Both the position numbers and the translations under genes were made by a program. From NCBI RefSeq assembly GCF_016026235.1, contig NZ_CP065613.1: DNA of 64,000 nucleotides; one strand, 5' to 3'. This document shows positions 28,287 through 29,198 of this stretch, piece after piece; within the stretch, counting starts at the first letter, position 1; every line of letters starts with the position of its first letter. Below the pieces are notes generated by a model. The model worked only from the letters and a program-made list of their open reading frames with translations. It was not told where the DNA came from and searched no databases. This DNA comes from Escherichia coli. Its GTDB lineage: Bacteria > Pseudomonadota > Gammaproteobacteria > Enterobacterales > Enterobacteriaceae.

Positions 28287-28300
28287 TGACTGGTGTTAGA

Positions 28301-28603
28301 TTGCCTGATGCGCTACGCTTATCAGGCCTACGAAGAGCGTGCAATATATTGATTTTGCAAGATTTTGTAGGCCGGATAAGGCGTTTGCGCCGCATCCGGC
28401 AGTTGTGCGGCGGTGCCTGATGCGACGCTGGCGCGTCTTATCATGCCTACAAAACTGCACTCAACCGTAGGCCGGATAAGGCGTTTACGCCGCATCCGGC
28501 AGTTATGCGCAGATGCCTGATGCGACGCTTTGCGCGTCTTATCATGCCTACAAAACTGAACTTAACCGTAGGCCGGATAAGGCGTTTACGCCGCATCCGG
28601 CAT
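28301..28603. repeat. BIME cluster: six REP units in alternating orientation
   Basis: Alternating gcctgatgcgacgct...cttatcatgcctac and gtaggccggataaggcgtttacgccgcatccggca units immediately after ybbP. Confidence 0.9.
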
Positions 28604-28632
28604 GAACAGTGTGCATTTTGGCAATAAATCTG

Positions 28633-28657
28633 AAACCAACTGTCATGTCGGTTTTTT
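28633..28657. repeat. 25-bp direct-repeat copy A (aaaccaactgtcatgtcggtttttt), 24/25 identical to copy B at 29109-29135
   Basis: Read directly from the sequence; the two copies bracket the small-ORF module. Confidence 0.7.
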
Positions 28658-28658
28658 A

Positions 28659-28687
28659 AAGGCCGAAGGTGGTAAACCTTCGGCCTT
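28659..28687 (-). terminator. Strong hairpin (11-bp stem aaggccgaagg / ccttcggcctt) 17 nt downstream of the small-ORF stop
   Basis: Perfect stem with a 7-nt loop; on the minus strand it is followed by a second weaker hairpin with a U-rich tail (copy A). Confidence 0.5.
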
Positions 28688-28703
28688 AGCTACGTTTCCT
28701 CAG

Positions 28704-28787
28704 TTATTCAATAAACTGACGGATCAGTTCCAGCAGCGCGATTAGCGCCTTAAGCACGATGAGAACTTTATCGAGAAAAGTTTTCAT
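28704..28787 (-). CDS. Candidate 27-aa type I toxin-like peptide (DinQ/TisB-like), MKTFLDKVLIVLKALIALLELIRQFIE
   Basis: ATG with a GGGAG RBS 8 nt upstream; amphipathic single-helix peptide; the LIALLELIR stretch matches my memory of E. coli DinQ; structured 3' end; candidate antisense RNA nearby. Confidence 0.45.
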   Translation of the reverse strand: MKTFLDKVLIVLKALIALLELIRQFIE

Positions 28788-29012
28788 CCGTTGCTCCCTT
28801 AAGGGAGAAAGACAATCACAGCTTACCCTTACGTTGCCTGTAACTATGATTTTCTTCATGTGCTAGATGAGGACTGCCTCTCTCCAAATTAGAGCACCAG
28901 AATCAGCACCACCTGTATCCTGACCAGGACTTAAAAGTACTTTTCCGCACTGCGGTAATCCCTTGAGGCAGTATCACTACTAGCGTCGGGATTGTATCGC
29001 CAACATAGCTGT

Positions 29013-29135
29013 TTGAATATGTAGGCATCCTGACTTATAATTCACTTGCTAGATGAGGACTGTTTCATTTCTGCCCGGAACCACCAAGTCTTGGGCGGAA
29101 AAAATAAAAAAACCGACTGTCATGTCGGTTTTTTT
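29013..29135 (+). ncRNA. Candidate small RNA: TTGAAT-17bp-TATAAT promoter (29013-29041), predicted start near 29048, terminator hairpin plus T7 at 29111-29135
   Basis: Near-consensus sigma-70 promoter and intrinsic terminator bracket about 88 nt with no ORF; the 5' end carries a 16-nt core (tgctagatgaggactg, 29047-29062) identical to 28861-28876 in the presumed leader of the toxin-like ORF. Confidence 0.35.
29109..29135. terminator. Bidirectional A-tract/hairpin/T-tract terminator (also terminates selU); direct-repeat copy B
   Basis: aaaaaaaccgac-tgtcat-gtcggttttttt; 63 nt downstream of the selU stop on the minus strand. Confidence 0.65.
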
Positions 29136-29198
29136 ATATCTGTATTCTGGTGCAACCATTCTGTTCTCACGACAATCGCCGTTTCAGAATACCGCCCA

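Follow-up and report, generated by a model that had tools for sequence, protein, structure and literature searches.

The junction between ybbP and selU was analysed in a 64,000-nucleotide stretch of an Escherichia coli chromosome (contig NZ_CP065613.1, RefSeq assembly GCF_016026235.1), hereafter the window. The left core gene of the junction, ybbP (25872..28286, plus strand), is an 804-amino-acid open reading frame (ORF) encoding an ABC-transporter permease with two FtsX domains by Pfam, and is annotated under this name both in K-12 and in FDAARGOS_943, a 99.9%-identical relative of the window. The right core gene, selU, also named mnmH (29199..30293, minus strand), is a 364-amino-acid ORF encoding tRNA 2-selenouridine synthase, with a rhodanese domain by Pfam and matching annotation in the same two genomes. 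The two genes are convergent, and the gap between them, 28287..29198, measures exactly 912 bp, the distance given in an earlier sequence-only reading of this DNA. The gap holds six repetitive extragenic palindromic (REP) units and a 569-bp segment with the ORF of a DinQ-like 27-residue toxin and the gene of an AgrB-like antisense RNA; it holds no part of the rhsD island found between the same two genes in K-12.

The left part of the gap is a cluster of REP units in alternating orientation, a bacterial interspersed mosaic element (BIME), at 28303..28603 (repeat families D1, D2, I1 and I2). The six units counted in the sequence-only reading were recovered and comprise two types, with three units of each: GCCTGATGCG...CTAC, starting at about 28304, 28416 and 28517, and GTAGGCCGGATAAGGCG...CATCCGGCA, starting at 28367, 28467 and 28568. 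All are imperfect palindromes of about 35 nt, alternating in type and lying in an intergenic position after convergent genes, as expected of REP units in a BIME. The Rfam REP-pair model naRNA4 scores 79.1 and 77.2 bits in this cluster against a threshold of 59.5, and the ES036 model scores 40.4 bits. Used as a query, the REP sequence matches dozens of sites per E. coli genome. In alignment, units 1 and 2 and the end of unit 6 are common to the minimal junctions of CFT073 and E. albertii, and the two intervening 100-bp REP-pair repeats are, judged from this comparison, an expansion.

The remainder of the gap is dominated by the 569-bp segment (28616..29184), which carries the whole DinQ-like/AgrB-like module and is missing, by blastn and alignment, from the minimal junctions of CFT073, EC18 and E. 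albertii. Its G+C content is 43.6%, compared with 55-58% in the flanking genes. The spacer of CFT073 consists of REP1, REP2 and then TGAACAGCGTGCA directly followed by CAGAATCCCCCA, and the 569-bp insertion of the window falls precisely between these last two elements. The window allele can be described as the spacer frame of CFT073 and E. albertii to which two 100-bp REP-pair repeats and the 569-bp segment are added.

Across the 5,426 complete E. coli genomes that made up our census, the junction has at least five alternative contents, in keeping with the claim of the sequence-only reading that accessory content differs here between strains. The most frequent is the Rhs island, with the K-12-type left junction from ybbP to Rhs in 2,858 genomes and the matching right junction in 2,869 (about 53%). 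The DinQ-like module, as in the window, occurs in 1,332 genomes, 1,192 of them at least 99% identical to the window, and is always chromosomal and essentially single-copy. A 4.2-kb island, as in sequence type 131 (ST131), occupies the junction in 574 genomes and comprises a type VI effector of the Hcp family, extended by a toxin part, and after it three DUF2931 genes; this Hcp-toxin island lies at 12401-16403 of the extracted ST131 locus, and tblastn and blastn found no similarity to it anywhere in the 64-kb window. Short junctions of any kind, the module type included, number 1,723, and subtracting the module type leaves about 400 genomes with a minimal REP-only spacer of 140-240 bp. The CFT073/Nissle-type spacer is 140 bp long with two REPs; EC18, once considered a single-repeat ('solo') allele, was rejected as such when alignment showed a minimal spacer with four REPs.

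The remaining junctions, in about 250 genomes, are of other or unclassified types. One example is strain 2018-166 (extracted locus 9131-9899), in which a copy of the insertion sequence IS1A truncates ybbP and abuts a truncated allD, with selU and the whole allantoin cluster (allS through allD) deleted. An IS1A copy is also found in FDAARGOS_943, between gcl and hyi (13047-13744 of its extracted locus; the corresponding position is at about 34850 of the window).

The toxin ORF of the module (28704..28787, minus strand) encodes the 27-residue peptide MKTFLDKVLIVLKALIALLELIRQFIE. In FDAARGOS_943 it is annotated as dinQ by the NCBI Prokaryotic Genome Annotation Pipeline (PGAP), and the peptide scores 40.9 bits against the NCBIfam model toxin_DinQ (NF041472), above its cut-off of 30; against the DqlB model (NF041473) it scores 24.5 bits, under the cut-off of 35. 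The exact peptide is already present in public collections, on at least 1,000 contigs, as 'MULTISPECIES: damage-inducible type I toxin DinQ'. Directly past the stop codon, on the same strand, is a G+C-rich hairpin, AAGGCCGAAGG-TTTACCA-CCTTCGGCCTT (28664..28692), which aligns with the terminator hairpin of K-12 dinQ. On the upstream side, the Shine-Dalgarno (SD) sequence GGGAG (28798..28794) is closed in predicted folds by CUCCC (28807..28803); this minus-strand element (28794..28807) is the counterpart of the SD-sequestering hairpin of the dinQ mRNA. Further upstream in the 5' untranslated region (UTR) lies a predicted antisense target (28861..28885, minus strand; repeat family D4), placed by duplex prediction, and beyond it a candidate promoter with the -10 element TACAAT (28991..28996, minus strand), a spacer of 17 nt and a weak -35 element, TATTCA.

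Back to back with this candidate lies a sigma-70-like promoter, TTGAAT-17-TATAAT (29013..29041, plus strand), with 10 of 12 matches in a consensus scan, and downstream of it the gene of the AgrB-like antisense small RNA (sRNA) at 29049..29137 on the plus strand. The Rfam AgrB model (RF02891) matches this gene over its full extent, 1-84, with 53.6 bits against a gathering score of 40; together with the dinQ annotation of the ORF, this gives substance to the toxin/sRNA-like module that the sequence-only reading had placed in the gap. The gene ends in an intrinsic terminator with a perfect 14-bp stem (29104..29137, plus strand). The overall arrangement is that of a divergent, non-overlapping sRNA upstream of a toxin gene, with its own promoter and terminator. 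On the minus strand, 29101-29169 gives sub-threshold Rfam matches to STnc370 (37 bits), AgrB (27.9) and OrzO-P (24.1), which most likely reflect the symmetric terminator hairpin and not a second RNA gene.

The 5' end of the sRNA is complementary to the toxin mRNA. From position 1, 14 nt pair perfectly with the toxin 5' UTR upstream of the SD; in the DNA, 16 nt at 28861-28876 are identical to 29047-29062 (plus strand), a count that includes the 2 nt just before the sRNA start. The predicted duplex reaches 23 bp if G-U pairs and one bulge are allowed. Run on full-length RNAs, duplexfold over-extends the pairing, of which only this 5' 23-bp part is meaningful.

No LexA box of the form CTGT-N8-ACAG, with at most one mismatch, occurs in 28287..29198, and a LexA 20-mer scan that recovers the K-12 dinQ box AACTGGATAATCATACAGTA gave nothing in the module. 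Because it has no LexA operator, unlike dinQ, the module is probably not SOS-induced, and the label 'damage-inducible' assigned by PGAP is probably a misnomer for this paralogue, inherited from the name of the profile.

The 569-bp segment belongs to the DinQ/AgrB family, also known as the dinQ-like (dql) family, and we read it as a complete type I toxin-antitoxin module. The minus strand would give an mRNA of about 320 nt that encodes the 27-residue peptide, a hydrophobic membrane peptide, and the plus strand an sRNA of 89 nt, transcribed from the strong promoter with its start some 60 bp past the toxin promoter. On the model of dinQ-agrB (Kristiansen et al. 2016, PMC5066626), the ribosome-binding site of the full-length mRNA would be locked in the CUCCC/GGGAG hairpin because the upstream element ACUGCCUC would occupy element GGAGAGAGGCAGU. 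Trimming of the 5' end would free GGAGAGAGGCAGU, which could then pair with the anti-SD strand of the hairpin. Perfectly complementary to GGAGAGAGGCAGU over its first 14-16 nt, the sRNA would re-sequester that element, so that the SD hairpin would close and translation would be blocked.

Predicted RNA folds were compared with this scheme. In the final fold, the transcript start was placed near 28984, a predicted 5' end derived from the -10 candidate TACAAT at 28996..28991. In the full-length transcript, ACUGCCUC (28972-28965) is predicted to pair with GAGGCAGU (28880-28873), and the SD at 28798-28794 is closed by 28807-28803. Without 35 nt at the 5' end, 28885-28873 is predicted to pair with 28816-28804 and the local SD hairpin is gone; with the sRNA target blocked, the hairpin is restored. 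In the dinQ model, four UTR elements control access to the SD through the mutually exclusive pairings 1:2, 2:3 and 3:4; the folds of the window RNA give 1:2 and the closed SD hairpin at full length and 2:3 in the shortened RNA, and agree with that model apart from the state of the SD in the shortened RNA. All four UTR elements of dinQ have counterparts in the window, with compensatory differences from K-12: the pairing of elements 2 and 3 is GGAGAGAG/CUUUCUCC in the window and GGAGUGAG/CUCACUCC in K-12, and the SD hairpin is CUCCC/GGGAG in the window and CUCCAU/AUGGAG at the aligned place in K-12.

Taken together, these features raise the tentative possibility of a functional, SOS-independent second DinQ system with a cognate antitoxin RNA, spreading as a swappable allele that is mutually exclusive with the Rhs and Hcp-toxin islands and in which a 108-bp loss of the toxin leaves an orphan antitoxin RNA. 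Several observations count against the module working as proposed. Measured against the consensus, the toxin promoter is weak, and the consensus scan missed it. Perfect complementarity between sRNA and target spans 14-16 nt, as against 23 contiguous (32-34 total) for AgrB and dinQ, and AgrA of K-12, with interrupted complementarity and only 9 contiguous nt, is inactive. In the 5'-truncated fold, the SD is predicted to be paired with another upstream stretch and not free, unlike in the published dinQ model. Lastly, in 6 of 39 evenly spaced module-bearing records a 108-bp deletion between GATGAG repeats (window 28766-28873, as in CFSAN061770) takes the start codon of the toxin, its SD and the antisense target while leaving the AgrB-like gene intact, which results in orphan-antitoxin alleles; with about 1 in 7 sampled carriers so affected, selection for the toxin is not universal.

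Some of these traits would also suit a decaying relic, that is, a toxin-antitoxin pair that no longer works and is passively carried in the spacer. The missing LexA box, the weak toxin promoter and the shortened complementarity fit such decay, as do a degenerate orphan terminator copy on the left of the module and the recurrence of the toxin-inactivating deletion in a sizeable minority of carriers. We nonetheless regard a relic as rather unlikely, given that the ORF, the SD and its hairpin are intact, that the interacting elements differ from K-12 in a compensatory manner, and that the promoter of the sRNA is close to consensus and its terminator is perfect. The near-identity of most carriers to the window (the 1,192 of 1,332 noted above) also speaks against decay, as does the 99.6% conservation of the module across lineages whose flanks differ by 3-6%.

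The orphan terminator copy is one of two 25-bp direct repeats. The left copy (28633..28657, repeat family D3) is identical at 24 of 25 positions to the right copy (29110..29134), which lies within the sRNA terminator, and the inner 477 bp of the module are found between them. The left copy resembles a degenerate AgrB-like terminator hairpin, with faint similarity to the 3' part of the sRNA upstream of it, and contains a minus-strand terminator-like site (28654..28633), which may help to terminate the toxin mRNA. As K-12 has two agr copies in tandem, the left copy is most plausibly what is left of an adjacent agr gene. In E. coli SCPM-O-B-8794, the gap is reduced to 233 bp (extracted locus 11851-12083), with exactly one repeat copy and both outer flanks. 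The simplest reading of this allele is a deletion between the repeats, although the reverse event, an insertion, may also account for it.

Such an insertion would be expected if the module were a discrete mobile unit with an insertion mechanism of its own, the 25-bp repeats being a target duplication or attachment sites and the SCPM-O-B-8794 allele the empty site. The nearly identical repeats around 477 bp, the existence of the single-copy allele, the low G+C content and the near-identity of the module across diverged lineages are all consistent with this idea. It is nevertheless very unlikely in our view: the module encodes no recombinase or transposase, 25 bp is far longer than usual target-site duplications, and the repeat is the sRNA terminator itself, with simpler readings available for both the left copy (an agr remnant) and the SCPM-O-B-8794 allele (a deletion). 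Moreover, in E. coli the module is found only at ybbP-selU, in at most two places per genome and never on plasmids.

In K-12 MG1655, the gap between ybbP and selU is 7,301 bp long and contains rhsD, ybbC, ylbH, ybbD, ylbI and ylbG. The annotation agrees with the sequence-only reading, which had placed the first four of these genes between ybbP and selU (ybbB); K-12 does not share the 0.9-kb junction of the window, and its rhsD is not elsewhere. The flanking genes of the window are 98-99% identical to their K-12 counterparts, and homology in blastn is confined to them, with none between the two stop codons: it ends 3 bp past the stop codon of ybbP and restarts 2 bp before that of selU. Searches of the whole 64-kb window upheld the earlier statement that no Rhs element or remnant is present. 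K-12 RhsD (1,426 amino acids) gave no tblastn match at E<=1e-3, the 7.2-kb K-12 island gave none by blastn, and YbbC and YlbG gave none by tblastn; the window has no large ORF with the G+C-rich YD-repeat core of a clade I, rhsD-type element, and the gap has no tip or immunity genes, orphan core fragments or ylbG insertion-sequence fragment. The sequence-only reading had further suggested that the variable junction explains why a small module may be visible here. The junction is indeed variable, but the module was not uncovered by the absence of Rhs, because it is an alternative allele wholly missing from the K-12 allele.

Jackson et al. 2009 (PMC2935791) described this site as rhs 'position 3' (ybbA..ybbB), with rhs present in some strains and not in all, and inferred that rhs at this position is derived, gained after the split from B2-like strains and absent from E. 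albertii. On the basis of that inference, we conclude that the window allele is not an Rhs deletion scar and that the Rhs island is probably a later arrival in other lineages. A different arrangement was seen in E. coli O157:H7 TR01, where the Rhs island (extracted locus 5955-12049) has window-type sequence at both edges, over 40 bp at the left one and 49 bp at the right one (the latter equivalent to window 29150-29198). Borders of this type occur in 1 of the 5,426 genomes and K-12-type borders in 2,849. The idea, read from TR01, that the Rhs island displaced the module was dropped, TR01 being the sole such genome; its allele may be a rare recombinant or an assembly artefact, and as a singleton of this kind it was not used for the history of the junction. 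That the 912-bp junction is the scar of a deleted ancestral rhsD island is highly improbable: the majority status of the Rhs island, the close identity of the flanking genes to K-12 and the window-type borders in TR01 might suggest it, but no Rhs, ybbC, ylbG or island DNA is left in the window, the 912 bp follow the spacers of CFT073, EC18 and E. albertii, all free of Rhs, in collinear order with the addition of defined insertions, the borders of the K-12 island are unrelated to the window sequence, TR01 stands alone, and published phylogenetic mapping infers a later gain of rhs at this position.

The alleles of the junction extend beyond E. coli. One genome per bacterial species was surveyed with a degenerate DNA pattern for a SelU motif, and the matches were mapped by tblastn. 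E. albertii has a minimal spacer of 242 bp with four REPs; in E. whittamii and Escherichia sp. MOD1-EC7003 the junction is occupied by the Hcp-toxin island. This island is old in the genus, given its presence in two Escherichia species besides the 574 E. coli genomes of the census. In Escherichia sp. E1V33, a 712-bp gap (3235-3946 of its extracted locus) holds two REPs and the module, at 99.7% identity. The convergent adjacency of ybbP and selU is also found in Citrobacter, Klebsiella, Kosakonia and Buttiauxella, where the gap ranges from 65 bp to about 5 kb, and the junction is therefore a long-standing hot spot.

The window and E1V33 share the module at 99.6% identity, whereas their adjoining selU and allS are only 94% identical. 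On sequence grounds, this suggests a recent transfer of the junction segment between the two lineages, and it points to homologous recombination in the flanking genes as the route by which junction alleles are transferred. We consider it very probable that the junction is a hot spot of swappable alleles, of which that of the window consists of a REP spacer, REP repeats and a complete dql-family module, with no rhsD island in its past. In the history we propose, the window allele would never have contained that island; a short REP-containing spacer, like those of E. albertii and CFT073-like E. coli, would have gained two extra 100-bp REP-pair repeats and also the 569-bp A+T-rich segment. The Rhs island, the Hcp-toxin island, the dql module and the minimal spacer would each be whole alleles, and strains would differ at the junction because these are exchanged when the core genes on either side recombine homologously. 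This history is weakened by an ambiguous ancestral state in Escherichia, with the minimal spacer in E. albertii and the Hcp-toxin island in E. whittamii.

Much of this picture is already known: the Rhs-free junction is a common, documented polymorphism, the dql family was published in 2016, and the peptide had been named DinQ by PGAP. Our additions are small and comprise the allele census, the boundaries of the insertions, the absence of a LexA box, the reduced complementarity and the natural alleles with the toxin deleted. They carry little weight beyond annotation, confirming the junction as a multi-allelic hot spot with frequencies in the complete genomes sampled, and leave the current understanding of Rhs elements and type I toxin-antitoxin systems unchanged. 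For research on type I toxins, they offer a natural DinQ variant with shorter antisense complementarity and a ready set of natural toxin-deletion alleles.

Among known systems, the rhsD locus of K-12 (rhs position 3, ybbA/ybbP..ybbB/selU; PMC2935791) shares with the window the same chromosomal junction and the same two core genes; it differs in that the borders of the K-12 island bear no relation to the window spacer, and the window is without any part of the island. The Hcp-toxin (Hcp-ET) island of ST131, E. whittamii and Escherichia sp. MOD1-EC7003 likewise occupies exactly this junction, with unrelated content that is not in the window. The architecture of the module, in which a small hydrophobic toxin has a long 5' UTR and a divergent, non-overlapping sRNA is predicted to pair with that UTR, is that of tisB-istR-1, zorO-orzO and shoB-ohsC. 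None of these gives a sequence or model match, the Rfam OrzO-P score being 24.1 bits against a threshold of 60 and falling on the terminator; LexA controls tisB, as it does dinQ, whereas a LexA box is missing from the module.

The DqlB toxins of plasmids and chromosomes (NF041473) belong to the same superfamily of DinQ-like peptides and are found on E. coli replicons; the window peptide differs in falling under the DqlB cut-off and over that of DinQ. On E. coli plasmids (for example NZ_CP168040.1, 35627-35918, and NZ_AP027255.1), genes annotated dqlB or dinQ are 66-69% identical to the module over the ORF and 5' UTR, and 640 of 5,545 family matches in E. coli are on plasmids. A tblastn search of plasmids with the 27-residue peptide gave no match at E<=1e-3. 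Kristiansen et al. 2016 (PMC5066626) described the dql gene family and reported that some strains have dql genes together with dinQ. In agreement with this, many module carriers show a second matching place in the genome, at about 68% identity, and in these the module is additional to the canonical dinQ.

The closest comparison is with dinQ-agrA/agrB of K-12, located between arsR and gor (Weel-Sneve et al. 2013, PMC3567139; PMC5066626), which has the same gene order and orientation. The window module differs in its chromosomal site, in having one agr gene and not two, and in having no LexA operator. K-12 DinQ is also 27 residues long, and the core ALIALLELIR is common to both peptides, with that of the window having three more residues at the N terminus and three fewer at the C terminus. 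Both loci have a terminator, an SD hairpin, an antisense target upstream of the SD and a divergent, non-overlapping sRNA of the AgrB fold. The module is collinear with K-12 dinQ-agrA from end to end, over about 500 bp at about 68% identity, in an alignment that runs from the terminator hairpin through the ORF, the SD region and the target to a conserved CTGACCAGGAC block, the promoter region and finally the sRNA, terminator included.

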